Of a stretch of DNA of 64,000 nt, positions 2,523 to 53,400 are shown piece after piece (within the stretch, counting starts at the first letter, position 1; every line of letters begins with the position of its first letter). This stretch comes from Candidatus Kapaibacterium sp. (GTDB lineage: Bacteria; Bacteroidota; Ignavibacteria; Kapaibacteriales; Kapaibacteriaceae). The DNA lies in assembly GCA_018883125.1 (NCBI GenBank), contig VEQR01000001.1:1497-65496 (forward strand). Reading direction: 5' to 3'. The translations under genes and the position numbers were made by a program. The notes under the pieces were generated by a model. It saw only the letters and a program-made list of their open reading frames with translations. It was not told the origin of the DNA and ran no database searches.

Positions 2523-2889
2523 GCACGAAAGTACGCTCTTTGGTATCGCGTTCCGTGCACCCGCATTGCTGAACCAACTGATTACGTAGCTCCTGGCGCT
2601 GTTTCGGCGTCATATTATCACACCGTGTTTTCACAGATGTGTCAGCCACCTGTTCTCCGCGAATCGGAAGGGGGCGCGCACCGCGCCCAAACTTTACAGC
2701 AAAAATGATCACATAGGCAAAGGCCGTTATGCCAACGCCTTCGAGGAAGCGGAGGGACTCGGCGCCTGCGCGTGATTCCATCATCGTGTTCCAGAGATAG
2801 GTAACGGCGGCCCCATTAACGACCAACAGCCCGCCGATGCTACATACGTACATCATCGTGCGGGCTGTCTTGGTCGTGAGAATCGACAT
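2506..2889 (-). CDS. Hypothetical two-TM membrane protein; possible anti-sigma partner of the upstream ECF sigma factor
   Basis: 127-aa ORF immediately downstream of the ECF sigma gene on the same strand, overlapping the mscL start by 17 nt. It has two hydrophobic helices and no recognisable family. Confidence 0.4.
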   Translation of the reverse strand: MSILTTKTARTMMYVCSIGGLLVVNGAAVTYLWNTMMESRAGAESLRFLEGVGITAFAYVIIFAVKFGRGARPLPIRGEQVADTSVKTRCDNMTPKQRQELRNQLVQQCGCTERDTKERTFVHEHHN

Positions 2890-2899
2890 GTTCAGAGGG

Positions 2900-3454
2900 T
2901 TAGTCGTTGATGTTGTCGTACAACGCCTGGAGCTTCTTGCGAAGGTACAGGACGGCGTACCGCTTCCGAGCCAAGAGGGTGTTAATGTTCACACCGATCT
3001 CTTCGGACATCTCCCTAAACGAAACTCCCTCGAATTCATTTTTGACGAACACGTATTTCTGTTCGGGCGGAAGCTCGTCCAGACCCTCCAGAACGGCCTG
3101 CCAAATCGTTTCGCGCACTAGGTCCTGTTCTGGCGAATAGCTGTAGTCGCCCAGGAATCGCTCGACCGTGTCCATTCCTTCTTCGTGCTGTTCAGCCGTG
3201 CCGAGGTCAGCAAACGTGTCCGTCTTCTTCTTCCGGTAAGAGTCGATGATCCGATTCCGGACGGACGTAAAGACCCACGAAGCCAGGTTGTCAATCGGTT
3301 TGTTGACGTCCTTTGACGCGGCAATGACGTTGGCAAACACGTCTTGCAAGATGTCTTCGGCGTCCTCTTGATTACGGACGCGCTGACGGATGAATCCGAG
3401 ATACTTGTTCCGGTCTGTGCGGAACAGCTGCTCAATCTGCAGTGCGAGATCCAT
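2900..3454 (-). CDS. RNA polymerase ECF-type sigma-70 factor. An alternative upstream start at 3541 would give 213 aa.
   Basis: Region 2 and region 4 features are present: EDILQDVFANVIAA...WVFTSVRNRIIDSYRKK and PEQKYVFVKNEFEGVSFREMSEEIGVNINTLLARKRYAVLYLRKKL. Length is about 184 aa from MDLALQ. Confidence 0.8.
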   Translation of the reverse strand: MDLALQIEQLFRTDRNKYLGFIRQRVRNQEDAEDILQDVFANVIAASKDVNKPIDNLASWVFTSVRNRIIDSYRKKKTDTFADLGTAEQHEEGMDTVERFLGDYSYSPEQDLVRETIWQAVLEGLDELPPEQKYVFVKNEFEGVSFREMSEEIGVNINTLLARKRYAVLYLRKKLQALYDNIND

Positions 3455-3645
3455 AGCACTTCCTCCTTGTGTGGTGATTTCGGTTTTTAGCCGATTCTGG
3501 CGAACGATGCCCGTCTTGCGACGGAATTCAGCGCTGTTCATGGCAACTCCTGCTAAGATGTTGTCGTCAAATCCTGCCAGAATGGCAGATTTACTGTAAA
3601 AACGACGTAGCAGTTATGCCATGTTGTCCTGAATCGGTGTGAAAC

Positions 3646-5304
3646 TCAGCTTTTAGGAGGTAGTGGTAATTCTATGCCAAACTTTCGTGTGTTGGAAATC
3701 GCTCGCTCGTAGCCGGCATCGGCGTGTCGCAAGATGCCCATTAAAGGATCGTAAGTCAATACCCGTGCCAACTTTTCTTCTGCGGCAGAAGTTCCGTCGG
3801 CCACCACAACCATTCCGGCATGCAGGGAAAGCCCCATGCCAACTCCTCCGCCATGGTGAAGCGAAACCCACGTTGCGCCTCCAACAGCATTGAGGGCAAA
3901 GTTCAGATGCACCCAATCAGCTACGGCATCTGACCCGTCCTTCATGGCTTCGGTTTCACGATGGGGCGAGGCAACGCTTCCACAGTCGAGATGATCCCGA
4001 CCGATAACGATCGGTGCCTTGACCTTTCCGTCGCGCACCAGGTCGTTGAAGAGTTTGCCTGCCTTGGCCCGTTCACCGTAGCCAAGCCAGCAGATCCGCG
4101 CCGGCAGACCCTGATAACCAATGTGGTCCTGCGCTTCGCGAATCCACCGGTGAAGCTGCACGTTGTCCGCAAATAACTCCATAATGGCGTCATCGGTTAC
4201 ACGGATATCCTCTGGATCACCAGAAAGTGCTACCCACCGGAATGGCCCCTTACCATCGCAGAACAGTTCGCGAACGAATGCGGGCACAAATCCGGGGAAG
4301 TCGAAGGCGTTGGCAACACCATCGAAGTCGCGCGCGATCCCGCGGATGTTGTTGCCGTAATCGAAGGTTATGGCACCCTTGGACTGAAAGCCCAGCATGG
4401 CGCGGACGTGCGCGCCGATGCTCGCATAGGAGCGCTTGAGGTAATCATCCGGGTTACTGATCCGCAATGCGTCAGCTTCCAGCTTTGTGAGTCCGGCAGG
4501 ATAATACCCGTTGAGCGGATCGTGTGCCGAGGTCTGGTCGGTAACAACATCGGGGATGATCCCACGCTCGAGCAACAGGGGAAGGATCTCGGCCGCGTTG
4601 CCCACAAGGCCAATGGAGATTGGCTCCCGACGCTCCTGATACTCCCTGATAACGGCCAGTGCCTCATCGAGATGGTGCATTTTTCGGTCGCAGTACCCAT
4701 CGCGAATGCGCTTGTCAATTCGCACTTCGTCGATCTCAATACACAGCGCCGCTGCGCCGGCTATTGTTGCGGCAAGGGGCTGAGCACCGCCCATTCCTCC
4801 CAGACCGGCAGTAAGAAGAAAGCGTCCGTTGAGTGTACCGCCAAAGTGCTGACGCGCACATTCGGCAAAGGTTTCATAGGTGCCTTGAACGATCCCTTGC
4901 GTACCGATATAGATCCACGAACCCGCGGTCATCTGACCGTACATCATAAGCCCCATGGCATCGAGCCGACGAAACTCCTCCCATGTGGCCCACTTGGGTA
5001 CAAGGTTGGAATTTGCAATGATCACCCTCGGAGCTCCGGTGTGGGTCTTCACCACGCCAACGGGCTTGCCGCTCTGAACGAGAAGCGTTTCGTCCACCTC
5101 CATCGTGCGTAGTGATTCCAATATTGCCTCGAAGGCCTCCCAATTGCGGGCGGCCTTGCCCAGACCACCATACACGATCAGCTCATCGGGCTTCTCGGCA
5201 TTCTGCGGGTCGAGGTTGTTCTGGATCATTCGATAGGCGGCTTCGATCTCCCAGTTCTTACAGGTAAGCGTCGAGCCGCGAGGAGCAGTGATGGTGCGAG
5301 TCAT
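3646..5304 (-). CDS. hutU: Urocanate hydratase (urocanase)
   Basis: 552 aa with high similarity along its length to HutU, for example [30 protein letters not shown] and [13 protein letters not shown], which are NAD-binding urocanase signatures. Confidence 0.92.
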
Positions 5305-5310
5305 GGTCGA

Positions 5311-5547
5311 GGAAATTACGGAGGTACGGAATTACGGAATTACGGAATGACGGAATGACTGATGACTGATTACTGATTACTGATGACTGATTACTGGGCG
5401 ATATGGGTTTTGCTCATTTTCATCAGTCGACGGTCATCAGTCATCAGTCATCAGTCATCAGTCATCAGTCATCAGTCATCAGTAATCAGTCATCAGTCAT
5501 CAGTAATCAGTCATCAGTAATCAGTCATCAGTCATCAGTCATCAATC
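5311..5547. repeat. Inverted microsatellite arrays. About 4 copies of GAATTACG (8-mer) plus about 7 copies of ACTGATG/ACTGATT (7-mer) lie on the left, then a roughly 38 bp spacer, then about 17 copies of CATCAGT/AATCAGT in inverse orientation.
   Basis: Read directly from the sequence. The left and right arrays are reverse complements of each other and should form a long imperfect hairpin. The element lies between the mazF 3' end and the hutU start. Confidence 0.9.
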
Positions 5548-6228: not shown

Positions 6229-6588
6229 CTAGGTATGCGACGACAGCTGATGATCGATATCATCAAGCGTCTGCTGACTCAGGCGCTTGGATTCAAAGAT
6301 CGATCGGAGCATGTCAAACGAATAGATGCCGGTGTCGTGTCCGTCTTTCCACGACGCCTGGATGCCGTAATTGCCAACGGGCGTAAGAGCAGCAATGTCG
6401 TTCATGCCGGGGGCGAGGGTTTTCATGCCGGGGAAAACGATCTGACCCATGATCTGCTCACCGGAGCAGTGGGCGCATGGACAGGCGTCCCGCAGGTCAG
6501 ATAGGAGGATACAGGATTCGAGTCCGTCCGACCAGGTGCTACAGAGCACGGCGGCGTTGCGCCGTTTCAGTGATAAGGGGCGAAGCAT
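6229..6588 (-). CDS. DUF971 family protein (gamma-butyrobetaine hydroxylase-like N-terminal domain). The start is uncertain, and the ORF extends to 6672.
   Basis: WSDG...[13 protein letters not shown]...[24 protein letters not shown] matches the DUF971 signature. It is divergent from asnS. Confidence 0.6.
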
Positions 6589-7978
6589 GACGCAAACTTC
6601 GCCAAGTTCTCGCGTATTTTCGCGAATGCAATCGCGATACAAATCCTTTGTTGCCATCGAAGACTTGGCCAATCACATTGGCGAAACCGTCACCCTGAAT
6701 GGTTGGGTGTACGACAAGACCGAGAAGGGCAAGCTCATCTTTATCAAACTCCGCGACGGTAGCGGAATCGTGCAGTGCGTGCTCTTCAAGCCGAACGTCT
6801 CCGAAGAGATTGCGGGCAATGCTCAGCACCTCACGCAGGAGTCCAGCGTGTCGATCACCGGCACGGTTCGTGCGGAACAGCGAGCCCCCTCCGGAGTTGA
6901 GCTTGATGTGACCGATGTGCGCATTTGGCAGGTCTCGAAGGACTACCCGATAACGCCGAAAGAACACGGTGTGGAGTTTCTAATGGAGCACCGCCACCTG
7001 TGGTTGCGTTCTGCGCGTCAGCATGCGATCATGCGCGTGCGCGCTCGGGTGATCAAGGCCATCCGTGATTTCTTTGATGGCAATGGCTTCCGGCTGATGG
7101 ACTCGCCGATCTTTACGCCGAATGCCTGCGAGGGCACATCGACGTTGTTCGAGACGGAGTACTTCGATCTTGGCAAGGCCTACCTCACGCAGTCGGGCCA
7201 GCTCTATGCCGAAGCAAGTGCCATGGCACTTGGCAAGGTCTATACGTTTGGACCGACCTTCCGTGCCGAGAAGTCCAAGACGCGCCGTCACCTGACGGAG
7301 TTTTGGATGGTAGAGCCGGAGATGGCTTACTTTGACATCAATGATGACATGGATCTGGCGGAAGACCTCGTCGAGTATATCGTGCAGTCGGTCCTGAAGG
7401 ACTGTCAGCGCGAACTCGCTACACTTGGCCGCGATGTCTCCAAGCTCGAAGCTGTGCGTCGCCCCTTCTATCGTATGTCCTACACCGAAGCTGTGGACTG
7501 GCTGAATAAGAACGATGTGAAGCTCAATCGCAAGCAGCCCGATGGTTCGGAGATCCAGGTAGACTTCCCGTGGGGCGAAGACTTCGGTGCTCCGCAGGAA
7601 GAAGCTATCATGCAGCAGTTCGACCGTCCGTGCATCATCCACCGCTACCCATCGGAAGTGAAAGCGTTTTACATGAAGCGCGATCCGGAGAACACGAACG
7701 TCGTGCTGGCCATGGATATGCTTGCTCCGGAAGGGGCTGGCGAAATCATCGGCGGCTCGCAGCGGGAAGACAACCACGATCTGCTCCTCGAACGCCTGCG
7801 TCACGAAAACCTTCCCGAGGATGCGTTCCAATGGTACCTCGACCTGCGCAAGTTCGGCTCCGTCCCGCACTCCGGCTTTGGTTTGGGCGTTGAACGGACC
7901 GTGAAGTGGATCACCGGCGCCGAGCATATTCGAGAAGTCATCCCGTTCCCACGGATGATCTATCGGATCGTGCCGTGA
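6587..7978 (+). CDS. asnS: Asparagine--tRNA ligase, with an alternative start at about 6626 (MQSRYKSF)
   Basis: Class IIb aminoacyl-tRNA synthetase with an N-terminal OB anticodon-binding domain ([25 protein letters not shown]) and class II motifs ([25 protein letters not shown]). The high Asn-specific similarity extends along the whole length. Confidence 0.9.
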
Positions 7979-7988
7979 GCCGCTGAGC

Positions 7989-8312
7989 GGAATTACTGAA
8001 GTACGGAAGTACGGAAGTACCGAAGTACTGAAGTACGGAAGTACCGAAGTACGGAAGTACCGAAGTACGGAAGTACCGAAGTACGGAAGTACCGAAGTAC
8101 GGAAGTACCGAAGTACAATGGAGTGGCACCATATATGTCGCTTTCGTGGGAATGACAGACAATCACTTGTTTCGGCAGACCCCAATCGAGTGCATCAGTA
8201 CTTCAGTACTTTAGCAATTCAGTACTTCAGTACTTCAGTAATTCAGTACTTCAGTACTTCAGTACTTCAGTAATTCAGTAATTCAGTACTTCAGTAATTC
8301 ACTACTTCACCT
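7989..8312. repeat. Inverted 8-mer microsatellite arrays. About 16 copies of GAAGTACG/GAAGTACC lie on the left, then a roughly 80 bp spacer, then about 14 copies of CAGTACTT/CAGTAATT, which are the reverse-complement units.
   Basis: Read directly from the sequence. The right array runs up to the pepF start codon. Confidence 0.9.
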
Positions 8313-10100
8313 ATGGACACAACCAAGACAAACGGCTCTGAAAACATTTTCTGGGACCTCTCAGATCTTTACGCAACGCTCGATGAGACGGGCCTTGAGG
8401 GCGACCTCGCGCGCATTGGCGATCGCACGAAGGCTTTTCGTGAAAAGTGGCACGGTCGGTTCGCAACTTCCAGCATCGCCGAGTTCATGGAGATGGTTGC
8501 CGAATACGAGCAACTAAACGAGGACTTCGGTCGAATGGGTGCCTTTGCGCATCTGCAATGGTCAACCGACTCGGAAAATGTGGAATACGGCAAGCTGATG
8601 CAGCGTGTTACGGAAACGCTGTCAAAGGCATCGAACGAGATCATCTTCGTTGACACAGAGCTATCGAGCCTTTCTGCCGAGCGCATTGCCGAATTGATGG
8701 CGGCTCCGGAGATGGCCTCGCGCAAGCACTGGCTGGAAGTCGTTATGGACTATAAGCCCCATACCCTCAGCGAAGACGTGGAGCAGGCGCTCAATGCCAA
8801 GTCCGTGACATCGCGCTTTGCTTGGGTTCGTCTTCACGACGAAGTGTCGGGTGCGATGACGTTCTCGTTTCGTGGACAGGAGTACACGATTGCGCAGATG
8901 ACGAAGATGCTCTACGATGGCGATCGCCAGACACGGAAGGAAGCAGCTGAGACGATCTCGGCTGTACTCAAGACAGATGCCAAGATGCATGCCTACGTGT
9001 TCAACACGATCATCGGCGATTGCGAAGTCAATGACCGTTTGCGCTCCTACCCAACGTGGGTTTCAAGCCGCAACCTCTCGAATGAGGTGTCCGATGCATC
9101 CGTTCAGGCCCTCGTCGATGCCGTCGTCTCTCGCTACGATCTGGTTCATCGGTATTTCGCTCTGAAGAAGGGGCTCCTCGGACTTGATAAACTGTATGAC
9201 TATGATCGGTATGCTCCGGTGACCGAAGTATCGGATTTCTGGACGTGGGATCAGGCACGGGCTATCGTGACGGATTCATACATGTCATTCGATAGGCGAG
9301 CAGGCGAGATCGCCTCGATGTTCTTCGAAAAGAACTGGATCCATGCGCCAGTTCGCAAGGGCAAGCGCAGCGGTGCCTACAGCGCGGGTACCATCGCCTC
9401 CGTGCACCCGTATGTGTTCATGAACTACACCGGCACTAGCCGCGATGTGCAGACGCTGGCACACGAGCTTGGCCACGGCGTGCATCAATACCTGTCACGT
9501 CAGCAGGGCCCCCTGCAGATGCACACGCCCCTTACCATCGCCGAAACGGCAAGCGTGTTTGGGGAGATGATCACGTTCAAGAAGATGTATGAGCAGACCA
9601 CGAGCGACGAAGCAAAGCTCGCACTGCTCATGTCCAAGCTCGACGGAATGATCGCAACGGTGTTCCGTCAGGTTGCCCTTAATCGTTTCGAAGAAGCCGT
9701 TCACATTGCACGCCGCACGCAGGGCGAGCTCTCGCTGGATCAGATCAACGAGATCTGGCTCACTACACAGAAGAGCCAATTCGGAGATTCCGTCGAACTC
9801 AGCGATGGCTATGAAGTGTGGTGGTCCTACATCTCGCACTTCATTCACACGCCGGGCTACGTGTACGCCTACGCCTTCGGTGAATTGCTTGTGCTGGCGC
9901 TGTATCAGATCTACCTGCAAAGCCCGGAGACATTCCCCGACAAGTACATCGAGCTCCTCTCGTCAGGGGGCTCTAAGCGTCCGGAAGAACTTCTCGCCCC
10001 CTTCGGACTCGACATTACCAGTCCAACATTCTGGCACAACGGACTGTCGTTTATCGACAGCTTCCTGGGTCAGGCTGAAGCGTTGGCTGGGAAGAAATAG
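8313..10100 (+). CDS. pepF: Oligoendopeptidase F (M3B family metallopeptidase)
   Basis: 595 aa with the zinc motif HELGHGVHQYL (HEXXH) and a downstream Glu ligand region. Overall it resembles PepF. Confidence 0.88.
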   Translation: MDTTKTNGSENIFWDLSDLYATLDETGLEGDLARIGDRTKAFREKWHGRFATSSIAEFMEMVAEYEQLNEDFGRMGAFAHLQWSTDSENVEYGKLMQRVTETLSKASNEIIFVDTELSSLSAERIAELMAAPEMASRKHWLEVVMDYKPHTLSEDVEQALNAKSVTSRFAWVRLHDEVSGAMTFSFRGQEYTIAQMTKMLYDGDRQTRKEAAETISAVLKTDAKMHAYVFNTIIGDCEVNDRLRSYPTWVSSRNLSNEVSDASVQALVDAVVSRYDLVHRYFALKKGLLGLDKLYDYDRYAPVTEVSDFWTWDQARAIVTDSYMSFDRRAGEIASMFFEKNWIHAPVRKGKRSGAYSAGTIASVHPYVFMNYTGTSRDVQTLAHELGHGVHQYLSRQQGPLQMHTPLTIAETASVFGEMITFKKMYEQTTSDEAKLALLMSKLDGMIATVFRQVALNRFEEAVHIARRTQGELSLDQINEIWLTTQKSQFGDSVELSDGYEVWWSYISHFIHTPGYVYAYAFGELLVLALYQIYLQSPETFPDKYIELLSSGGSKRPEELLAPFGLDITSPTFWHNGLSFIDSFLGQAEALAGKK

Positions 10101-10103
10101 CGA

Positions 10104-11021
10104 TCACTCGCTGGCGAGTCCCGCCAGTTTCATCACCGCGTTGACGTAGTCATCGCTGTTGTTGTAGTGGTGGATGGCCTTGCGCTGTTGCTCGGGTGTT
10201 TTACCCCAGCCGGCGCGATCAAGGTAGTTCGCAACGCTAAAGACGGCATCGTCGATCTGGTACAGATCGATGGTGCCGTCGTCATTTCCGTCGGCAGCTG
10301 ACGAAACGTAGGATGACGGCAAAAACTGCGTGAGTCCAAAAGCACCGGCCCACGAGCCCCGTAGAGTAAGCGTGTTCATGGTCTTGCGCATCTGAATCGA
10401 GTGGAGTGCCTTAAGCTGCTGCACAGCCCAATTCACCTTGCGGTCAGCACGCTTGACAAGGGCCTCTCGCACACTGTCTATCTTCGATGAATCGATCGAC
10501 TTCGCCTTCATCACGAGTGCAGTGTTCGACTCGATGAACTCGGACTCGTTGCTCAGCAGTACCGATAGGTACACGCTTGGCACGTGGTGCTTGCCGGTAA
10601 CGCGTCCATGCTTGGTTTCTACCCAGAGTAGGGCCCCGATGATGGAAGGGGGCACACCATGCACAGAGTCTGCCCGCTGAAGTAGGGTCTTGTGACGGTC
10701 TAGAAACTCCCGCACATTCGATACGGCCTCTGCCGACCAGTTGTGTGAATAGTCGGGTTTGGTGGCGAAGTTTGTGACGTTTGTGCGGACGTACTTCTCA
10801 TCGAACGACGTCATCGAATCACGAAGCAGCAGCTCGATGTAGTCTTTGTCCACGCCACGGGAGATCGCAGCATCAGCGGCGCGCGACAGAGGATGAGATG
10901 AGGCGCCAGTCTTTGGTGAACGATCGTCACCATTTGATGTGTCTTGCGTAAATGTTGCCATCGAAACTACGAGTGCAACGACGGAAGTGAGAACGGTCGA
11001 GAGAAGCGGAAGCATATTCAT
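10104..11021 (-). CDS. Lytic murein transglycosylase (MltB-like, SLT_2 domain). The start is taken at a signal-peptide Met; the ORF extends to 11138.
   Basis: C-terminal SWAGAFGLTQFLPSSY...DDGTIDLY...ANYL is typical of MltB-family transglycosylases. The mature protein begins with a signal peptide MNMLPLLSTVLTSVVALVV. Confidence 0.7.
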   Translation of the reverse strand: MNMLPLLSTVLTSVVALVVSMATFTQDTSNGDDRSPKTGASSHPLSRAADAAISRGVDKDYIELLLRDSMTSFDEKYVRTNVTNFATKPDYSHNWSAEAVSNVREFLDRHKTLLQRADSVHGVPPSIIGALLWVETKHGRVTGKHHVPSVYLSVLLSNESEFIESNTALVMKAKSIDSSKIDSVREALVKRADRKVNWAVQQLKALHSIQMRKTMNTLTLRGSWAGAFGLTQFLPSSYVSSAADGNDDGTIDLYQIDDAVFSVANYLDRAGWGKTPEQQRKAIHHYNNSDDYVNAVMKLAGLASE

Positions 11022-11045
11022 CGGACGGGAATCTACGGTACCACT

Positions 11046-11756
11046 ATGACAATGGTCAACACTCGAACCTTTTTGGTCGTCGCGCTCGGCTTTGCTCTGC
11101 CGCTGATGATGTGTGCTCAACCGCGTCTCCAAATGCAATCGTTGGTGGATTGGGGTGTGGTAGTACCCAGTGGATCACTGACGAAGCAAGAGTCCGTCAA
11201 GTATCGCGTTCCGATCAAGAACACCGGAAACAAGACGCTCGTGATCTCGTCGGTACGTCCACAATGCGGATGTACAACAGCGCCACTGGAACGTGACACG
11301 TTACGTCCGGGCGAAGAGACGGGCATGAACATCACCCTCACATTGCCAGCCGGCAGCGGGGTGATCGACAAGTATGTGACGGTGTTCAGCAACGACTCCG
11401 CTGGCAGCCATGTTGTGAAGCTTCGGGCAGAAGTGCAGCGCCCCCTTCAGCTGTCATCAAGCTTTCTGGGGTTTAATCAGGGCTATGTCGGTGAGCCAAC
11501 ACGCTCAAAGATCAAGCTCACAACGCAGGTAGACGAAGATGTGACGATCACAATTGAACCGGTAACGCCCGGCCTGTCGGTCGTTGGCCCGTCAAAACTG
11601 ACAGCTCGCAAAGGCGTTGCCGTTCCGATCGAAGTTGAGTATGTGCCGAACGCGTTCGGTGCGTTCAACGTGGCACTGAAGATCAAGACAACGCTGAAAG
11701 ACTACGAGGTTATCGACATCACCGGCTACGGGATCGCTGACGCTCCGAAGAGGTAA
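11046..11756 (+). CDS. DUF1573 domain-containing secreted protein
   Basis: Signal peptide MTMVNTRTFLVVALGFALP. DUF1573 core with IKNTGNKTLVISSVRPQCGCT followed by a second beta-rich domain. The ORF track starts upstream at 10944, and the signal-peptide Met is preferred. Confidence 0.65.
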   Translation: MTMVNTRTFLVVALGFALPLMMCAQPRLQMQSLVDWGVVVPSGSLTKQESVKYRVPIKNTGNKTLVISSVRPQCGCTTAPLERDTLRPGEETGMNITLTLPAGSGVIDKYVTVFSNDSAGSHVVKLRAEVQRPLQLSSSFLGFNQGYVGEPTRSKIKLTTQVDEDVTITIEPVTPGLSVVGPSKLTARKGVAVPIEVEYVPNAFGAFNVALKIKTTLKDYEVIDITGYGIADAPKR

Positions 11757-13590
11757 CCCGCTCGTAGATGATAAAACCGCCATCGCGATATCTCTCACGA
11801 AGCGTTGGCACGGTTGACCAGTTTGTAGCATCATTGATGCGACATACAAAAGTGGCCCGACGGTCGATGTCGCCGTTGATCAGCCACGGTTCCCAATCAT
11901 CGGCCGCGATGCCCTTGGCGGCAGAACTCAAGTGGTATGGCTTCTGCGTGTAGAAGAGATGCGCATAGCTCTTCATGGTGAGGGGCTTTACATACACATC
12001 CTTGCCCCTCAATGACTGATAGAAGTCAAGAGCAGCCCCCTGCGAATAGGCCTCGATCTTCGGAGCAACAAGAGGAAGAAACGTGAAGACGAACACCATC
12101 ACACTGGCGTACAGTGTGATGAGTCCGGCAAGGGGCTTGCGTTTACGCAGGATTACGTTCACGACTGCGCCCGCGATGAGCACGAGTCCAATCAATGGCT
12201 CTACACCCAACCACTCAACATTGCGTGACATTGCCTCGCGAAGAAACGGATCGCGAAACGATGGCAGCGAGAGCATCCACTCGCTGTGCATGAATGCAAG
12301 CGGAACGATAATGGCTATCCCACCAAGCAGGAAAGAATGCGCAAGGATGATGAACGATGTGAGGTATGGGGTTCTGTAGGGGCGAGACGCAGTCTCGCCC
12401 GTGTTCATCATGTCGTGGTGGCGAGACGCAGTCTCGCCCGTGTTCATCATGTCGTGGTGGCGAGACGCAGTCTCGCCCGTGTTCATCATGTCGTGGTGGC
12501 GAGACGCAGTCTCGCCCGTGTTCATCATGTCGTAGGGGCGAGACGCAGTTTCGCCCGTGTTCATCAGGCCCCTTCTCACGATCCACATCGCCGCCAGGTA
12601 GGTCAGCGGGATGTAGGCCATAGAGCTGTAGTGGACGATCTTGGTGGTGACGGCGGAGAAGACCACCAGGACAACGAAGAAGAGTGCCGTCATCCACTGA
12701 CGCATGCGCTGAACGTCTGCGGTTTCGTCCTGTGCTGCCCGTAGTCCGCCAAAGAAAAACACCGATGATGGATAACAGCCGATCAACAGAACGATGCTGT
12801 GATAATACCACGGTTGGGCGTGGCCGGCCTCGCCGGTTGTGAGCAGACGCCACTGGTAGTGAATGTTCTCGAGTAGGAAGGTTGGCCCGTTCTGCATGGC
12901 ATCAATGCCAAGCCAGACTGCCGGAAGCGTCAGGGCCGTGACGGTGATGATGGCAAGATCTCTGATCGGGAAGGCAATGGCGGTTGACCGTCGCTGCCAT
13001 ATCCACATCACCAGTGCTGTAAGAACAACAAGCCCAAGGCCCACGGGCCCCTTCGTCATGACGGCAAGGCTTGCATACAGTCCGGCCTGAAAGGGGCGCC
13101 CCTTCCCTTCAAGCTGACCTCTGATGATCTGCCAGATGGACAGGAAGATGAACAGATTGAAGGTCGGGTCGATGATTCCCGAGCGTGCATAGAAGTGGGG
13201 AAGGAGCGTGCCGAGATACACCATCGGCCAGAGAACTCCCATGGCACTCCCGCCAATGCGACGTCCGATGTGATGCAGCACCAAGAGCGTGATGACCCCG
13301 ACGATGGCATTGGGAAGTCTCGCAGCAAACTCGTTGATGCCGAAGACGTGCATCGATAGTGCCTGCATCCATACGAAGAGAGGGGGCTTTTCGGTGAACG
13401 GACGATAATCGATTTGCATATGCAGATAATCGCCCGTAGCGATCATCTCGCGCGCGCATTCGGCAAAGTTGATCTCGTCCCAGTCGAACAGGCGCACCGA
13501 CCCCAGAAAGGGTATAAAGAGGAGAAGTCCAACGGCGAGGATCAGCAGGCGCTGCCGCCGCACATCATGTAAGGTGGCGCTTGTGTTCAC
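11719..13590 (-). CDS. ArnT/PMT-like membrane glycosyltransferase (GT39/GT83 fold) carrying an internal 13-aa tandem repeat
   Basis: N-terminus LFDWDEINFAECAREMIATGDYL...FTEKPPLFVWMQA and its multi-TM topology are typical of ArnT/dolichyl-phosphate-mannose protein mannosyltransferase-like enzymes. There is an internal (MMNTGETASRHHD)x~6 insertion. Confidence 0.75.
   Translation of the reverse strand: MNTSATLHDVRRQRLLILAVGLLLFIPFLGSVRLFDWDEINFAECAREMIATGDYLHMQIDYRPFTEKPPLFVWMQALSMHVFGINEFAARLPNAIVGVITLLVLHHIGRRIGGSAMGVLWPMVYLGTLLPHFYARSGIIDPTFNLFIFLSIWQIIRGQLEGKGRPFQAGLYASLAVMTKGPVGLGLVVLTALVMWIWQRRSTAIAFPIRDLAIITVTALTLPAVWLGIDAMQNGPTFLLENIHYQWRLLTTGEAGHAQPWYYHSIVLLIGCYPSSVFFFGGLRAAQDETADVQRMRQWMTALFFVVLVVFSAVTTKIVHYSSMAYIPLTYLAAMWIVRRGLMNTGETASRPYDMMNTGETASRHHDMMNTGETASRHHDMMNTGETASRHHDMMNTGETASRPYRTPYLTSFIILAHSFLLGGIAIIVPLAFMHSEWMLSLPSFRDPFLREAMSRNVEWLGVEPLIGLVLIAGAVVNVILRKRKPLAGLITLYASVMVFVFTFLPLVAPKIEAYSQGAALDFYQSLRGKDVYVKPLTMKSYAHLFYTQKPYHLSSAAKGIAADDWEPWLINGDIDRRATFVCRINDATNWSTVPTLRERYRDGGFIIYERVTSSERQRSRSR
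12366..12585. repeat. 39-bp tandem repeat (about 6 copies) inside the ArnT-like CDS. Each unit contains the palindrome GGGGCGAGACGCAGTCTCGCCC.
   Basis: Perfect 39-nt periodicity read from the sequence. It is in-frame, encoding MMNTGETASRHHD units. The same palindrome occurs intergenically at about 41377 and, as a variant, at 24520-24640. Confidence 0.9.
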
Positions 13591-19902: not shown

Positions 19903-20070
19903 TCACGTCATCCCCGCAAAAGCGCGTCATCCCCGCAAAAGCGCGTCATCCCCGCGAAAGCGCGTCATCCCCGCGAAAGCGCGTCATCCCCGCGAAAGCG
20001 CGTCATCCCCGCGAAAGCGGGGATCCATAACGCATGGATTCCCGCTTCCGCGGGAATGACGGAGGGTCCC
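19903..20070. repeat. About 6 tandem copies of the 19-bp unit GCGCGTCATCCCCGCGAAA, ending in two hairpins (CATCCCCGC-GAAA-GCGGGGAT and ATTCCCGC-TTCC-GCGGGAAT)
   Basis: Read directly from the sequence. It lies between the DUF1501 stop and the GT2 start. Confidence 0.9.
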
Positions 20071-24329: not shown

Positions 24330-24380
24330 AAGGGACTCCAGTGGGCCATCTCCGGCCCAGAATACATGGTACGTGCTGCG

Positions 24381-24462
24381 TGCGGAAGGAGAGACTCGAA
24401 CTCTCACAGGTTGCCCCGCCAGATCCTAAGTCTGGTGCGTCTGCCAATTTCGCCACTTCCGC
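24381..24462 (-). tRNA. tRNA-Leu (anticodon TAG), with a long variable arm
   Basis: Reverse complement: GCGGAAGTGGCGAAATTGGCAGACGCACCAGACTTAGGATCTGGCGGGGCAACCTGTGAGAGTTCGAGTCTCTCCTTCCGCA. It has a 7-bp acceptor stem, an anticodon loop CTTAGGA, and a long extra arm with a TPsiC arm GTTCGAGTC. Confidence 0.85.
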
Positions 24463-24715
24463 AGAGCCACAAAGATAGTGACGAGAGACGAGAGACAAGA
24501 GACAAGAGACGAGAGACGAGAGACCGTAGGGGCGAGACGAAGTCTCGACCAAGAGACGAGAGACCGTAGGGGCGAGACGAAGTCTCGACCAAGAGACGAG
24601 AGACCGTAGGGGCGAGACGAAGTCTCGACCAAGAGACGAGAGACAAGCCATTGATTTACTAGCCCCGGGCCTTGGCCCGGGGAAAGAGAGACGAGAGACT
24701 ACCTCAATTTCGTGC
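24463..24715. repeat. Composite repeat block made of a GAGACGA/GAGACAA 7-mer microsatellite, three roughly 40-bp units containing CCGTAGGGGCGAGACGAAGTCTCGACC, and the palindrome CCCCGGGCCTTGGCCCGGGG
   Basis: Read directly from the sequence. It lies immediately 5' of tRNA-Leu on the coding strand and downstream of the csaA-like gene. Confidence 0.9.
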
Positions 24716-36640: not shown

Positions 36641-37972
36641 ATGCACACGATGTGTGCGGTCTGCGGCGTACTGACGAGCCTGTATCTGTTGATAGCGGCC
36701 GTGCCGTCGTATGCACTGCTGCAAGATTCAACCTTGGAACAACGTCGCCGGCTTGCGGAGCATGCCCGGGTGATGTTTCCTCTTGATGGCGTTAAGCTCA
36801 CGATCCAGAACGTTACACTTGCCGCGTTCCCGGAGATAGGCCTGGTTGTTGAGTGTGACGGAGACTGCAAAGTACTCGACACGCTGAAAGCCTCAGCGCT
36901 AACGGTGATGGAGAATGGCGTAAAGCGGCCCGTTACGCGAATTCACAAGATCGACGTTAAGGAACGCGTACCAGTGGACTTCATGTTCGTGCTTGACGTT
37001 ACGGGTACGATGCAGCCATACATCAATGGCGTTCGAAACAACATTGAGGCATTTGTCCAGAATCTCTCCAAGCGAGGTATTGATTACCAGCTTGGCCTAG
37101 TGTTGTACAGCGACGTTGTTGAGGCGATCTATGAGCCAACCGACAGCGTTGGCAAATTCCTCGGCTGGATGAGCAAGGTTCAGGCATTTGGTGGATTTGA
37201 TGAGAAGGAAAATGCTCTTCAGGCCCTCTACGATGCCAGCCGTGCCCGATTCCGTCCGGCCGCCAACCGCGTTGCAGTGCTCGTGTCAGACGCCGGCTTC
37301 CATCAGGTTGGAGAAAGGGGCAGTGGGCGAACAAAGTTCAATGTTGAGACCATGATCGAGCACTTGAACGAGCTAAAGGTGCGCGCTTTTTGTATCGTTC
37401 CGTCAAACCTCAAACCCTATCAACGACTGGCAGAGGGTACAAAGGGTACGATCTTCGATCTGAACCAGTCGTTCGCAAAGATTCTTGATCTCTATTCGCA
37501 GCGACTGACGAATCTTTATACGATCTTTTACAAGAGCGACACGAAGGTTCGTAGCGATTCTATAAATGTTGCTCTTCTGGACGAACGAAAGAGAGAGCTG
37601 GTCAAGCAGATCATCCCGATCGTTGAGATCGGACGGAAGATCATAATTGAAAACCTTCTATTCCCCGTTGCTTCGTCGGTTCTTCCTGATAGCGTTGAAG
37701 AGCTCGAAGTCCTTAACGAATTCATGAAGAGCCGTCCTTCCGTGGTGGTGCGAATAGAAGGTCACACTGACAATACCGGTACTCCAAAGCAGAACAAGGC
37801 GTTGTCGCTATTACGTGCCGAAGCTGTTCGCGCCTACATGCTCAAGAAAGGGCTAGACCCCAAACGACTTATGGCCGTCGGACTTGGCTCAACGAAGCCT
37901 ATCGGTGATAACACAACGGAGTTTGGACGAAAGCTGAACCGACGGACGGAGATCGTGATCGTGGGTAAGTGA
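36641..37972 (+). CDS. VWA-domain protein with a C-terminal OmpA-like peptidoglycan-binding domain
   Basis: VWA region (FMFVLDVTGTM MIDAS-like motif ... AVLVSDAGFH). C-terminal OmpA_C signature (VVVRIEGHTDNTGTPKQNKALSLLRAEAVRAYMLKKG...NRRTEIVIVGK). Confidence 0.75.
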   Translation: MHTMCAVCGVLTSLYLLIAAVPSYALLQDSTLEQRRRLAEHARVMFPLDGVKLTIQNVTLAAFPEIGLVVECDGDCKVLDTLKASALTVMENGVKRPVTRIHKIDVKERVPVDFMFVLDVTGTMQPYINGVRNNIEAFVQNLSKRGIDYQLGLVLYSDVVEAIYEPTDSVGKFLGWMSKVQAFGGFDEKENALQALYDASRARFRPAANRVAVLVSDAGFHQVGERGSGRTKFNVETMIEHLNELKVRAFCIVPSNLKPYQRLAEGTKGTIFDLNQSFAKILDLYSQRLTNLYTIFYKSDTKVRSDSINVALLDERKRELVKQIIPIVEIGRKIIIENLLFPVASSVLPDSVEELEVLNEFMKSRPSVVVRIEGHTDNTGTPKQNKALSLLRAEAVRAYMLKKGLDPKRLMAVGLGSTKPIGDNTTEFGRKLNRRTEIVIVGK

Positions 37973-37974
37973 CG

Positions 37975-38420
37975 CCTTCGGCGTGGGGGACGCTTCGCGT
38001 GGGGGACGCCTTCGGCGTGCGAGACCTTCGGTGCGAGACGCCTTCGGCGTGCGAGACCTGCGGTGCGAGACGCCTTCGGCGTGTGGGACGCTTCGCGTGG
38101 GGGACCTGCGGTGCGAGACGCCTTCGGCGTGCGAGACGCTTCGCGTGGGGGACGCCTTCGGCGTGTGGGACGCCTTCGGCGTGTGGGACCTGCGGTGCGA
38201 GACGCCTTCGGCGTGCGAGACCTGCGGTGTGGGACCTGCGGTGCGAGACGCCTTCGGCGTGCGAGACGCTTCGCGTGGCGTCATCCCGAACGAAGTGAGG
38301 GACCTAGTGTGGGACGCTTCGCGTGTGGGACGGTGGTGTCACTCGTCTCTCGTACCCCGGGCCAAGGCCCGGGGCTATTATGGATGGATTGTCACTTGTC
38401 ACTCGTCACCCGTCACTCGT
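37975..38420. repeat. Mosaic GC-rich minisatellite of three short unit types (GRGACGCCTTCGGCGTGY, GRGACCTGCGGTGY and GRGACGCTTCGCGTGGG). It is followed by the palindrome CCCCGGGCCAAGGCCCGGGG and GTCACTYGTCAC units.
   Basis: Read directly from the sequence. About 19 units occur in irregular order. The first unit type contains a UUCG-loop hairpin (ACGCC-TTCG-GCGT). Confidence 0.9.
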
Positions 38421-39068
38421 CTACATCCCCAGCCCCTTGCCGCGAAATAGCTTGGCATATGCCGCATTGCCGGGGTGGGTGGTATCCATGCAGTTGACCA
38501 CGGTGACCGGACCCATGATGCGGGAGCGGATTTCGAAGGAACCAATAGTGCGTGTGGTGCGCGGGACAATGGTCGAAACATCGACTTGCGAGAGGTTGCC
38601 GACCAAGTAGAGGGTTGCCGGAAGTTCGTTCTTGGTAAGAAGCCCTCCGATCATCGACACGATAACGGACTGCTTGCCAAGAGGGAGCTTCGTTTCGGTC
38701 GACATTGCTTTGCGGAGGTTGCGCCGATACTCTCCAATTGATGCACACCATGGATCCGTCGTTGGCGAACCGATGATCATATCAGTCGTTGCAGTGTCTG
38801 CTCCAATGTCGCGCGTGATAACGTCGATGATACTGTCGGCACGACGCTGCTCAATGCGACTGAAGACCACGGTGTACACAACGCGCTTGGCGCTCTTGAG
38901 CTTTTGACGAGAGAGTACCTCACCCGGCTTGGTGGAATCACGGTATAGCGCGCCCAGGACAACTGCCGTAACGGCCAGGACAGCAACGATGATGTAAAAG
39001 TACAGCCAACCATTCTTTGTGGTTGGCGGCAGCATCGACGCATTGTCGTCAAACTCTTCTGTGCTCAT
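38421..39068 (-). CDS. Hypothetical membrane-anchored protein (N-terminal TM helix, extracytoplasmic domain)
   Basis: 215-aa ORF. The TM helix is WLYFYIIVAVLAVTAVVLGAL. It is the last gene after yebC and purF on the minus strand, and its start is 4 nt from the purF stop. No family was recognised. The GTCACTCGTC repeats supply its last codons. Confidence 0.5.
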   Translation of the reverse strand: MSTEEFDDNASMLPPTTKNGWLYFYIIVAVLAVTAVVLGALYRDSTKPGEVLSRQKLKSAKRVVYTVVFSRIEQRRADSIIDVITRDIGADTATTDMIIGSPTTDPWCASIGEYRRNLRKAMSTETKLPLGKQSVIVSMIGGLLTKNELPATLYLVGNLSQVDVSTIVPRTTRTIGSFEIRSRIMGPVTVVNCMDTTHPGNAAYAKLFRGKGLGM

Positions 39069-41240: not shown

Positions 41241-41269
41241 TAGGTTTTAGGTGTTGGGTTTTGGGTGTT

Positions 41270-41460
41270 GGGTTTGGGTTAGTCTAGTCATTTTGGCCGA
41301 AGCCCAGAGCAAGCAAGGGGCAGGGTTGATTTCGTTGATTCGGGCGAGGGCCGGGGGTTGATTTCGTTGATTCGGGCGAGACTGCGTCTCGCCCCTACAT
41401 GTCACTCCGTACCTCCGTCACTCCGTACCTCCGTCACTCCGTACCTTCTTCTCGTATATC
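41270..41460. repeat. Composite repeat: a G/T-rich microsatellite (GGTGTTGGGTTTTGG...), a duplicated 29-bp GGGTTGATTTCGTTGATTCGGGCGAG, the palindrome GGGCGAGACTGCGTCTCGCCCC, and GTCACTCCGTACCTCC x3
   Basis: Read directly from the sequence. The last repeat units extend into the 3' end of the GNAT CDS and encode its final residues (…SDGGTE*). Confidence 0.85.
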
Positions 41461-51407: not shown

Positions 51408-53141
51408 ATGCATGCCTTTGACTTTCTCGATGAACTCGCTCTGTTGTGTCTTGCGGCACTTGTAGTACTGCGCGTCTTCCGCCAGATTCATCTGCCCCCT
51501 GTCATCGGGTTGATCGTTACGGGGCTCCTGTTGGGTCCTACGGGGTTCGGGATAGTCCAGCAGGACCAGATCATATCCTCCATCGCCGAGATCGGGGTGA
51601 TGCTCCTGTTGTTTACGATCGGTCTGGAGTTCTCGCTAGACGAGCTCAGGAAACTCCGCTCGATCGTGCTGATCGGTGGCCCGCTGCAGATAATCCTTAC
51701 CACGCTCGCGACAACGGCGTTGGTATATGGGGTATCTGTCGTTGCATCCACCGCCTATTCGACCTCTGAAGCAATTCTGATTGGAATGGCCTCTGCCTTG
51801 AGTTCAACGGCGATCTGTATCAAGCTGTTGAGCGATCGTCGGGAGCTTATGCAACCACAGGGACGGGCGGCACTTGGCATTCTCATCTTCCAGGACATTG
51901 CCGTTGTCCCGATGATGATCATCGTTACGCTATTGGACACGCGTCAGGACGTGAACCCCGGTGAGATAACCGTGCGTTTGCTGCTGCTTGTTGCTGTGAC
52001 TGTTGCCATGATCGTTGGCATGCGACTGGTTCTTCCGCGTCTTACACCCCACCTGGCACGCTCCTCGAACCCGGAAGTCCTAATTCTTGCTGCGCTGGGC
52101 TTGTGTTTTGGTGCGGCATGGGTAACGTCGCTGGCTGGCATATCTATGGCTCTTGGAGCATTCATAGCCGGCATGGCTATCGCCGGTAGTGATGACGGCC
52201 ATGCCATTGGTAAGGCTGTAGAGCCGCTGCGCGATGCGTTCACCAGCATGTTTTTCCTTTCGGTGGGACTGTTGGTACACGTGGTGTGGGCGACCTTACC
52301 GGCGAACATTCTCACGGCGATGCTCATCCTATTGGTCAAGGGTGTTGTTGTAAGTCTGGTGCTGATCCTGGTTCGCGTTCCGATACGGACTGCTATCACC
52401 GCCGGCATCACACTTGCACAGGTGGGAGAGTTCTCCTTTGTACTTGCGTCCGTTGGAATGGATTACGGCGTTATCACTTCGACAGAGTTTCAGAATCTTC
52501 TGGTGACCATCATCATCACCATGATCGTAACGCCACTTCTCGTGACCTTTGCTCCTATAGTTGCTGAGCGTCTATCGCCCCTTGCGAGATTGACGCCCAC
52601 TCTACGCAGGTGGACAACTGATGATACCGATGGATACATCAGACTTGAGGAGGGAACTTTGCACGAAGATCAGCCGATGGTGCTCATCATCGGTGCTGGC
52701 GTTCTCGGACTCAATGTCGCGCACGTCCTGGCTCAGACAGGTATTCGATATCGTCTGCTGGAGTTGGACAGGAACAACGCTGCGGCCCTACGAGCTAAGG
52801 GAGAACCTTGCATATCGGGAGACATGACCGATGCAGACGCACTTCGTAGCGCTGGGATTCAACACGTCTCGAACGTCATCATCGCAATCAACCAGGATGC
52901 GGCCATCACGCGAGGCGTCAAACTCATCCGCTCCCTGCGTCCGGATGTCTACATCATTGTCCGCTCCCGCTACCAGCGCAACAGCAAGTCTGCCCTCGAT
53001 CAAGGAGCTGACCTAGTAATAGTGGAAGAGTTCGAGTCAAGCATCAAGATCTTCGGCTCCGTCCTTGAACACCTCGGCGTCGAACAAGACCTCATCGAAT
53101 ACCAGGAACGGTATATGCGACTGAGGCAGACGTTTTCATAG
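51408..53141 (+). CDS. CPA2-family cation:proton antiporter with a C-terminal RCK/TrkA-N domain (KefB/YbaL-like)
   Basis: About 12 TM Na+/H+ exchanger core followed by a Rossmann RCK domain (MVLIIGAGVLGLNVAHVLAQTGIRYRLLELD). Confidence 0.85.
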   Translation: MHAFDFLDELALLCLAALVVLRVFRQIHLPPVIGLIVTGLLLGPTGFGIVQQDQIISSIAEIGVMLLLFTIGLEFSLDELRKLRSIVLIGGPLQIILTTLATTALVYGVSVVASTAYSTSEAILIGMASALSSTAICIKLLSDRRELMQPQGRAALGILIFQDIAVVPMMIIVTLLDTRQDVNPGEITVRLLLLVAVTVAMIVGMRLVLPRLTPHLARSSNPEVLILAALGLCFGAAWVTSLAGISMALGAFIAGMAIAGSDDGHAIGKAVEPLRDAFTSMFFLSVGLLVHVVWATLPANILTAMLILLVKGVVVSLVLILVRVPIRTAITAGITLAQVGEFSFVLASVGMDYGVITSTEFQNLLVTIIITMIVTPLLVTFAPIVAERLSPLARLTPTLRRWTTDDTDGYIRLEEGTLHEDQPMVLIIGAGVLGLNVAHVLAQTGIRYRLLELDRNNAAALRAKGEPCISGDMTDADALRSAGIQHVSNVIIAINQDAAITRGVKLIRSLRPDVYIIVRSRYQRNSKSALDQGADLVIVEEFESSIKIFGSVLEHLGVEQDLIEYQERYMRLRQTFS

Positions 53142-53144
53142 AAT

Positions 53145-53400
53145 TACAGAGTTATAGAATTACTGAATTACTGAATTACTGAATTACGGAATTACGGAAT
53201 TACTGAATTACTGAATTACGGAATTACTGAATTACTGAATTACGGAGTTACGGAGTTACGGAGTTACGGAATTACTGAATTACGGAGTTATCAGACTCGT
53301 CACTTGTCACTTGTCACTCGTCACTCATCAGTAATCAGTAATCAGTAATCAGTAATCAGTAATCAGTAATCAGTAATCAGTAAACTCTCGTCACTCGTCT
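53145..53400. repeat. Microsatellite array of about 19 copies of GAATTACT/GAATTACG/GAGTTACG (8-mer), then a GTCACTYGTCAC spacer, then 8 copies of AATCAGT (7-mer, inverse orientation)
   Basis: Read directly from the sequence. It fills the whole gap between the convergent CPA2 antiporter gene and the cytochrome c/monooxygenase gene. Confidence 0.9.

Follow-up and report, generated by a model that had tools for sequence, protein, structure and literature searches.

An in-frame array of GTAG-type repetitive extragenic palindromes in a membrane glycosyltransferase gene of Candidatus Kapaibacterium

We analysed a 64,000-nt window (the whole stretch of DNA studied here) from a single assembly, contig VEQR01000001.1 of a Candidatus Kapaibacterium sp. 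metagenome-assembled genome (MAG). Our analysis showed that a membrane glycosyltransferase gene in this window carries an in-frame tandem array of a short palindrome. The palindrome is a GTAG-type repetitive extragenic palindrome (REP), and elements of this class are linked to the Y1 transposases called REP-associated tyrosine transposases (RAYTs). We consider it very probable that the array is a GTAG-REP cluster in the codons of a loop, which was amplified in place, kept the open reading frame (ORF) and is nearly neutral for the protein. What is new here is the lineage, the polytopic membrane host protein and the evidence of turnover at one site. An earlier note on this DNA called the phenomenon rare, but it is less so than implied there, because intragenic REP clusters are already known from other bacteria (Di Nocera, De Gregorio and Rocco 2013, PMC3733652).

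Anatomy of the array and its host protein

The host gene and the array are made up of the following features.

11719..13590, minus strand: host gene, GT-C membrane glycosyltransferase, 623 aa (Pfam, NCBIfam, structure)
12376..12570, minus strand (mRNA sense): REP array (Tandem Repeats Finder, pattern search, six-frame translation, codon view)
12376-12414: terminal unit, GTAGGGGCGAGACGCAGTCTCGCCCGTGTTCATCATGTC, GTAG tag intact
12415-12531, minus strand: three identical internal units in register, each GTGGTGGCGAGACGCAGTCTCGCCCGTGTTCATCATGTC
12532-12570: terminal unit, GTAGGGGCGAGACGCAGTTTCGCCCGTGTTCATCAGGCC, GTAG tag intact

Tandem Repeats Finder (TRF) placed the array at 12381-12566 (period 39, 4.8 copies, 97% matches). 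In register, 12376-12570 holds five 39-bp units head-to-tail, each consisting of one REP hairpin and a linker of 13-14 nt. Thus the 39-bp tandem array described in the earlier note stands, and its count of six units is corrected to five. The REPs read GTAG...CCCG on the + strand, and the mRNA sense is the - strand. Four of the five palindromes are exact copies of GGCGAGACGCAGTCTCGCC and one has a single mismatch. With up to 3 mismatches allowed, the 19-nt core was matched 14 times in the window, against 0.04 matches expected from shuffled sequences.

The three internal units are identical over 117 bp and share two substitutions that are absent from both terminal units. These substitutions turn GTAGGGG into GTGGTGG (tag GTAG to GTGG, stem G to T) and the encoded Pro-Tyr into His-His. 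Because three identical internal units share two mutations that the terminal units lack, the array was amplified in place.

The codon view bore out the claim that the array lies in frame within the coding sequence (CDS), that is, in the minus-strand ORF 11719-13590, where it codes for residues ~344-406. The encoded peptide is LMNTGETASRPYD-(MMNTGETASRHHD)x3-MMNTGETASRPY, and with its flanks it reads ...RRGL-MNTGETASRPYD-(MMNTGETASRHHD)x3-MMNTGETASRPY-RTPYLTSFIILAH.... Six-frame translation showed that 4/6 frames through the array are open, two of the three on the sense strand among them, so an in-frame and stop-free outcome is not improbable. Since each unit equals 13 codons and the sense frame contains no stops, every copy number keeps the gene intact, and the in-frame conclusion is independent of the copy number.

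As RNA, each unit can fold into a hairpin (-14 to -17 kcal/mol), and the array region as a whole is far more stable than its shuffled versions (z = -7.15). The array is accompanied by neither a U-tract terminator nor a promoter-like site. An Rfam scan returned no family for the REP element, tRNA being the sole type of match. Two other kinds of array were considered and rejected. The linkers are the same between units and not unique spacers, which excludes a CRISPR array; a phase-variable contingency simple sequence repeat was rejected because 39 bp, or 13 codons, bars frame switching, and no second array contig was obtained.

The host protein is identical to the database protein P0001, annotated as 'glycosyltransferase family 39 protein, Candidatus Kapabacteria bacterium'. 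In a search of 5.8 billion clustered proteins, its closest homologs were 561-568 aa long and shared 79-88% identity over the N-terminal half. Our alignment (A1) showed a clean gap opposite residues ~344-406 in all nearest homologs except P0015. The loci of P0002, P0008, P0012, P0015 and P0018 have a common neighbourhood (P-type ATPase, glycosyltransferase, DUF1573, SLT_2, peptidase M3); these proteins are true orthologs, because the neighbourhood is conserved. Both flanks of the array are homologous to these orthologs in one frame, the array is absent from them, and the residues that are invariant in the family are all present in the full-length host ORF. An alignment of this kind had been proposed as a check for the missing insertion, and the syntenic orthologs of 561-568 aa without the array give the expected answer.

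In one distant ortholog, P0101 (619 aa), an insertion of ~55 aa lies in another loop, which comes earlier in the protein (A1 columns ~200-260). This insertion is of low complexity and rich in proline and glycine (...GGIKGGGNTGASVGVDDPNLPPPLVPPPQAGGG...), and it might be another repeat-derived insertion.

We then considered what kind of enzyme the gene encodes. Both PMT_2 (E 4.6e-14) and PMT of Pfam matched the host protein, which also aligns with the Cupriavidus ArnT structure 5EZM across residues 15-327. The NCBIfam ArnT equivalog NF009784 scored 104.6 bits against a cut-off of 567 and therefore did not reach its threshold. An AlphaFold2 model was built with 22 homologs, reaching a mean predicted local distance difference test score (pLDDT) of 81.9 and a predicted template modelling score (pTM) of 0.82. 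The full-length model superposed on ArnT (5F15/5EZM) with a target-normalised TM-score of 0.72-0.76. Because PMT_2 and PMT are matched, the model resembles ArnT and the equivalog threshold is missed, the modelled protein is assigned as a GT-C glycosyltransferase of the ArnT fold, and not as ArnT, the lipid A 4-amino-4-deoxy-L-arabinose (L-Ara4N) transferase, in the strict sense. The description of the host as an ArnT-like membrane glycosyltransferase is in accord with this result.

In the same model, pLDDT fell below 50 at exactly residues 344-406 and at the last nine residues. The low-confidence stretch is flanked by confident transmembrane (TM) helices at 319-339 and 406-434. The array residues are thus predicted to form a disordered loop between two TM helices with the fold preserved, as the earlier note had expected of a loop. 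If the 13-TM topology of ArnT holds for this protein, the loop would be equivalent to that between TM10 and TM11. Three TM helices (406-434, 464-482 and 486-507) stand between the loop and the C-terminal alpha/beta domain, which Petrou et al. reportedly found in 2016 to be periplasmic in ArnT. The residues RRG precede the loop, and a later turn on the cytoplasm side reads RKRKP. Because of this helix parity and the positive-inside rule, the modelled loop is probably cytoplasmic, and the earlier suggestion of an exposed loop is most likely wrong.

The REP element, its copies and its relatives

The palindrome is an oriented element of 26 nt, GTAG-GGGCGAGAC-GCA-GTCTCGCCC-G, in which GGGCGAGAC-GCA-GTCTCGCCC gives a 9-bp stem with a 3-nt loop and is thus a short, G+C-rich, imperfect palindrome. 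The window holds three loci of this REP, namely the intragenic array and two intergenic sites.

24512..24644, plus strand: intergenic array of a REP variant, 40 bp x3.3 (TRF, pattern search)
41373..41398, minus strand: single intergenic REP, GTAGGGGCGAGACGCAGTCTCGCCCG, between divergent genes, with an exact core at 41375-41393

Both intergenic sites had been noticed earlier and were recovered here. The variant GTAGGGGCGAGACGAAGTCTCGACC occurs three times in the first, at 24526-24550, 24566-24590 and 24606-24630, and the second is a non-coding copy of the palindrome itself. The GTAG tag is present on the copies at 12376, 12532, 24526 (with two more there) and 41398 (minus strand), and the internal units of the intragenic array have GTGG in its place.

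The variant array is located upstream of a tRNA-Leu gene (24380-24462, minus strand). It is embedded in runs of the heptamers GAGACGA and GAGACAA, which resemble the REP stem (GCGAGAC), and a separate palindrome, CCCCGGGC-CTTGG-GCCCGGGG, follows it at ~24664-24684. Just upstream of the single REP at 41373, at ~41326-41349, we found a partial duplicate of the flank and left arm of that REP.

We explored the wider distribution of the palindrome by a genome scan for GGGCGAGAC-NNN-GTCTCGCCC with one genome per species, which gave at least 110 DNA stretches. The majority of the matches listed came from Kapaibacterium, Ignavibacteria and Melioribacter MAGs, several of which are mislabelled. In the Ignavibacteriota-like MAGs, 80/96 of the listed copies had the GTAG tag (77 on one side, 3 on both), versus 5/48 in unrelated taxa. 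There the palindrome as a rule has the form of a hairpin resembling a terminator. Among the same matches the REP is multi-copy, dispersed and predominantly extragenic, and none of the ~90 other copies examined was convincingly intragenic. The claim that a REP-like or MITE-like element had inserted or expanded in frame is supported by this mostly extragenic, GTAG-tagged family together with the orthologs that lack the array.

Several candidates for a second intragenic case were rejected. The 39-bp arrays of the fetched loci L050 and L008 are spanned by an ORF of 336-364 aa whose real start (MRTLIIGATG...) lies downstream, so they belong to a 5' leader. Ten other ORFs spanning a REP proved, by inspection and without Pfam, to be arginine-rich junk or to lie upstream of the true start, as at the ABC-F gene of L019.

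Head-to-tail arrays of the same REP also occur in intergenic DNA, with periods of 40 bp (window 24512), 39 bp (L008/L050), 35 bp (L014/L021), 43 bp (L076) and 41 bp (L102). Because these arrays vary in linker and period, tandem amplification is a general habit of the REP family; that the period be a multiple of three is needed only if an array is to survive within a gene.

At L053, the same REP with near-identical flanks occurs at 6408-6440 and 7544-7576, no more than ~12 bp after each of two paralogous genes. The paralogs end in a shared C-terminal domain (...VNPGVYFLQSATSV[KR]TFMVLP), which suggests that the REP was duplicated along with the 3' end of the gene.

One related genome offered a possible transposase partner. 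In L014, an Ignavibacteria MAG, a 181-aa ORF (2876-3421, minus strand) lies between three direct copies of this exact REP and at least six inverted ones, within a region of 2700-3710. The best NCBIfam match of this ORF was NF047646, 'REP-associated tyrosine transposase' (E 5e-13, 49 bits against an 80-bit cut-off), and its match to Pfam Y1_Tnp had an E of 0.004. The arrangement looks like a candidate REPtron, so that the family resemblance would go beyond form. Tandem half-REPs (GTAGGGGCGAGACGT x3) are located at L014 2724-2768. Pairs of REPs 0.7-1.1 kb apart in L022 and L053 were also considered as REPtrons and rejected, as neither has a transposase.

The element of the array is a GTAG-type REP, because its tag is oriented and one-sided (80/96 versus 5/48) and because a RAYT-like gene lies between inverted arrays of it in one related MAG (L014). 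Di Nocera, De Gregorio and Rocco defined GTAG REPs by stems of 6-9 bp and a tag that degenerates to GTGG in some families (PMC3733652), and the stem and tag of our element fit this definition. The GTAG hosts in PMC3733652 do not include Kapaibacteria or Ignavibacteriota, and Chlorobi and Bacteroidetes are given only CGTC repeats there. A literature search for REPs in Ignavibacteriota or Kapaibacteria found nothing. The present case extends GTAG-type REPs to the Kapaibacteria/Ignavibacteriota, and seemingly the RAYT partners of these REPs as well.

The array resembles several known systems. The intragenic GTAG and CGTC REPs of PMC3733652 are likewise G+C-rich hairpins with an unpaired GTAG and are mostly extragenic; their intragenic clusters are also tandem reiterations that take in pieces of the neighbouring DNA, and in Thauera and R. 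conorii they encode 43-82 aa. Our case differs from them in its lineage and in its host, which is a polytopic membrane GT-C enzyme, whereas the hosts highlighted there are replication or repair genes. The clusters of E. coli and Pseudomonas (bacterial interspersed mosaic elements, BIMEs, and the palindromic REP doublets called REPINs) and the RAYT REPtrons share with our array the GTAG tag and hairpin, the clustering and the tandem reiteration, and the putative RAYT gene between inverted REPs in L014 adds a REPtron-like trait. However, the E. coli and Pseudomonas clusters are extragenic and usually form inverted pairs, unlike the intragenic array.

Ogata et al. (2000), as cited in PMC10969869 and PMC3733652, described the Rickettsia palindromic elements (RPEs), the classic analogue, which according to these accounts are also palindromic selfish DNA, in frame in housekeeping genes whose protein is kept with a peptide segment added. 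RPEs are described there as single elements of ~100-150 bp with their own conserved peptide, while here a 26-nt REP was amplified into a tandem array of 39-bp units. The two are unrelated in sequence, and the analogy is one of behaviour only. As in the variable-number tandem repeats (VNTRs) of bacterial surface proteins, the units of our array follow one another in frame, and more or fewer of them would alter the length of the protein with no frameshift. The array differs from such VNTRs in its unit, which is a mobile and dispersed palindrome and no protein-derived repeat, and in that the loop is probably cytoplasmic.

Turnover at the locus and origin of the array

A near-conspecific genome is L001 (Kapaibacterium ZLKRG33), whose flanking peptidase and ATPase genes are 93-99% identical to those of the window. 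The same loop of its ortholog, P0015, carries a different array (36 bp x3.0, 100% identical, unit ACGTCGCCCCGGCGAAGGCCGGGGCCCAGATAGAAG; L001 3543-3700), after which the palindrome, GCCCCGGC-N4-GCCGGGGC (N4 = GAAG), occurs a fourth time in inverted orientation. The L001 palindrome has a CGTC-like tag in form. A search of the window and of all 142 loci for this palindrome matched L001 alone, and we therefore do not regard it as a proven dispersed REP.

Apparent half-palindrome remnants are found at the same codons in three short orthologs: CGTC-GCCCCGGC-GAAG-GGA in P0018, CGTC-GCCCCGGC-AACG in P0008 and CGTC-GCCTCGGC...GCCGGGGC-GACG in P0012. Because short orthologs keep such palindrome-like remnants, the loop-coding DNA of this clade has been palindromic for a while and has a fast turnover.

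Sliding-window comparisons showed the gene of the window to be a mosaic, with the following closest relatives.

aa 1-50: L001, 95%
aa 75-345: P0002 lineage, 79-90%
aa 398-548: P0015/P0008 lineage, 73-86% (versus 52-70% to P0002)
aa 548-623: P0002, 88-90%

The array coincides with one of the mosaic breakpoints, and the others, at ~aa 50-75 and ~aa 540, are not at repeats. The mosaic may reflect real recombination, and the downstream patch may even be the source of the array.

A mosaic pattern also extends beyond the gene. The block 10000-13400 of the window (~3.4 kb; SLT_2, DUF1573 and glycosyltransferase) is 63-85% identical to L001, versus 93-99% in the flanks, and 84-96% identical to the L005 lineage, with a patch of third origin at 12016-12570. 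From these identities, recombination seems to have made a mosaic of the block, whose genes are related to the envelope.

How the array arose may be pictured as follows. One REP, or a short patch bearing a REP, would have entered the loop-coding DNA; one unit would then have mutated and been duplicated in tandem by slippage or by unequal exchange or recombination. The product would be the same enzyme with ~65 extra polar and disordered residues in a probably cytoplasmic loop, while the mRNA would gain five stable hairpins and the DNA a recombination-prone site. By analogy, the effect on the protein is most likely neutral or nearly so, and the array may affect recombination, the stability of the mRNA or the speed of its translation. 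Intragenic REP insertions have been proposed to be tolerated in loops or linkers (PMC3733652).

An assembly artefact could also place an array in a gene. Two co-occurring Kapaibacteria populations would have been joined at the repeat, and the in-frame gene would then exist in no single cell. This accords with the array lying at a breakpoint, with P0002-like sequence upstream and P0015/P0008-like sequence downstream, and with a single MAG contig that has no independent support. However, the halves of the gene are collinear and in the same frame with conserved synteny, and the downstream patch is only 76-86% identical to any recovered lineage, so that no known strain was simply spliced in. Because of these two points we regard such a chimera as unlikely. 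Moreover, a join at the array would need the same REP array at this codon in both parents, and the breakpoints away from repeats fit real recombination. A second explanation is that selection keeps the array as a functional module of variable length (a contingency-type VNTR), by which the glycosyltransferase or its partners would be tuned, and that it is not a tolerated selfish insertion. In favour of this, the near-conspecific L001 carries another palindrome array (36 bp x3) in this loop, the locus shows the mosaic pattern of recombination that envelope-variation loci often have, and the intragenic periods 39 and 36 are both multiples of 3. Nevertheless, the loop is probably cytoplasmic and would not be exposed to phage or predators, and its peptide is predicted to be disordered and bears no relation to that of L001. 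The 39-bp period is no evidence of selection, because the intergenic arrays of the same REP in L008/L050 have it too, and we hold a selected module to be quite improbable. The length polymorphism proposed earlier was not demonstrated, as a scan of the metagenome collection gave no second array contig.

It could also be supposed that the host gene is a recent pseudogene whose ORF is open by chance. An insertion of 65 aa between TM helices could disturb membrane insertion, and with two of three sense frames open, the open frame is weak evidence of selection. On the other hand, none of the family-invariant residues has been lost from the full-length ORF, a confident ArnT-like fold is modelled on both sides of the insertion, and the rest of the gene has no frameshifts or stops. 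The published intragenic REPs also sit in loops or linkers of presumed functional genes (PMC3733652). We hold a pseudogene to be very improbable.

Several points weigh against a near-neutral REP cluster amplified in place. The array is known from one assembly only, a MAG contig, and the count of identical internal units is unreliable in a short-read assembly. The search of clustered proteins gave no second repeat-bearing protein beyond P0001, and a search for contigs encoding P0001 gave no record. When the 68-aa repeat peptide was searched against the protein database, nothing came back, P0001 included, so this result carries no information and probably reflects composition filtering. In the metagenome collection, the array junction CGCCCGTGTTCATCATGTCG had 24 matches, all of them single chance matches in an unrelated soil-bacterial gene, so no independent metagenome contig carried the junction. 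The RAYT-like assignment in L014 is below threshold (49 versus 80 bits) and comes from another genome, and in the window a crude HUH/Y motif regular expression, with no profile scan of the ORFs, found no RAYT-like gene. The cytoplasmic placement of the loop comes from helix counting and the positive-inside rule, and the neutrality of the array is an assumption.

Two genomes with near-identical flanks carry unrelated arrays, remnants persist in the orthologs, and the array stands at a breakpoint of a three-way mosaic gene. These observations raise the idea, which we put forward as rather doubtful, that palindromic elements land repeatedly in the loop-coding DNA and that this DNA is a hotspot of recombination. 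If such landing sites were general, REP hairpins would target pre-existing intragenic palindromes and would drive envelope glycosyltransferases to vary in length and to evolve as mosaics.

The array is a clean and datable case of in-place REP amplification inside an essential-looking membrane enzyme, with the gene unbroken. Together with the differing array of L001, it makes a tractable locus for asking how REPs enter coding DNA, whether palindromes attract palindromes and whether they seed recombination breakpoints. In practice, it is also a warning that MAG gene lengths are unreliable at such arrays.

Other repeats in the window

Arrays of 7-8-bp units fill almost every longer intergenic spacer of the window, and many of them begin just a few bases from a stop codon. 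They are located at 5314-5544, 7988-8309, 38391-38421, 41243-41280, 41401-41446 and 53141-53383, and their units include TCATCAG x18, CGGAAGTA x16, TCAGTACT x14, GAATTACT x18 and ATCAGTA x8. The spacer at 7979-8285 contains 307 bp of such arrays, where the L001 genome, otherwise 91-94% identical, has a 121-bp spacer. Judging by this difference in length, the arrays are hypervariable between near-conspecific genomes.

A 19-bp x6 array (CGTCATCCCCGCGAAAGCG, 98% matches) at 19906-20019 immediately follows the stop of an ORF ending at 19900. Its unit starts with CGTC, and a small CGCG-AAAG-CGCG hairpin spans the unit junction. Between convergent genes at 37971-38303, nested periods of 18, 32, 48 and 130 bp are built on GACGCCTTCGGCGTGCGA (hairpin ACGCC-TTC-GGCGT). 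The 155-aa ORF at 37983-38450 that covers this nested array is probably spurious.

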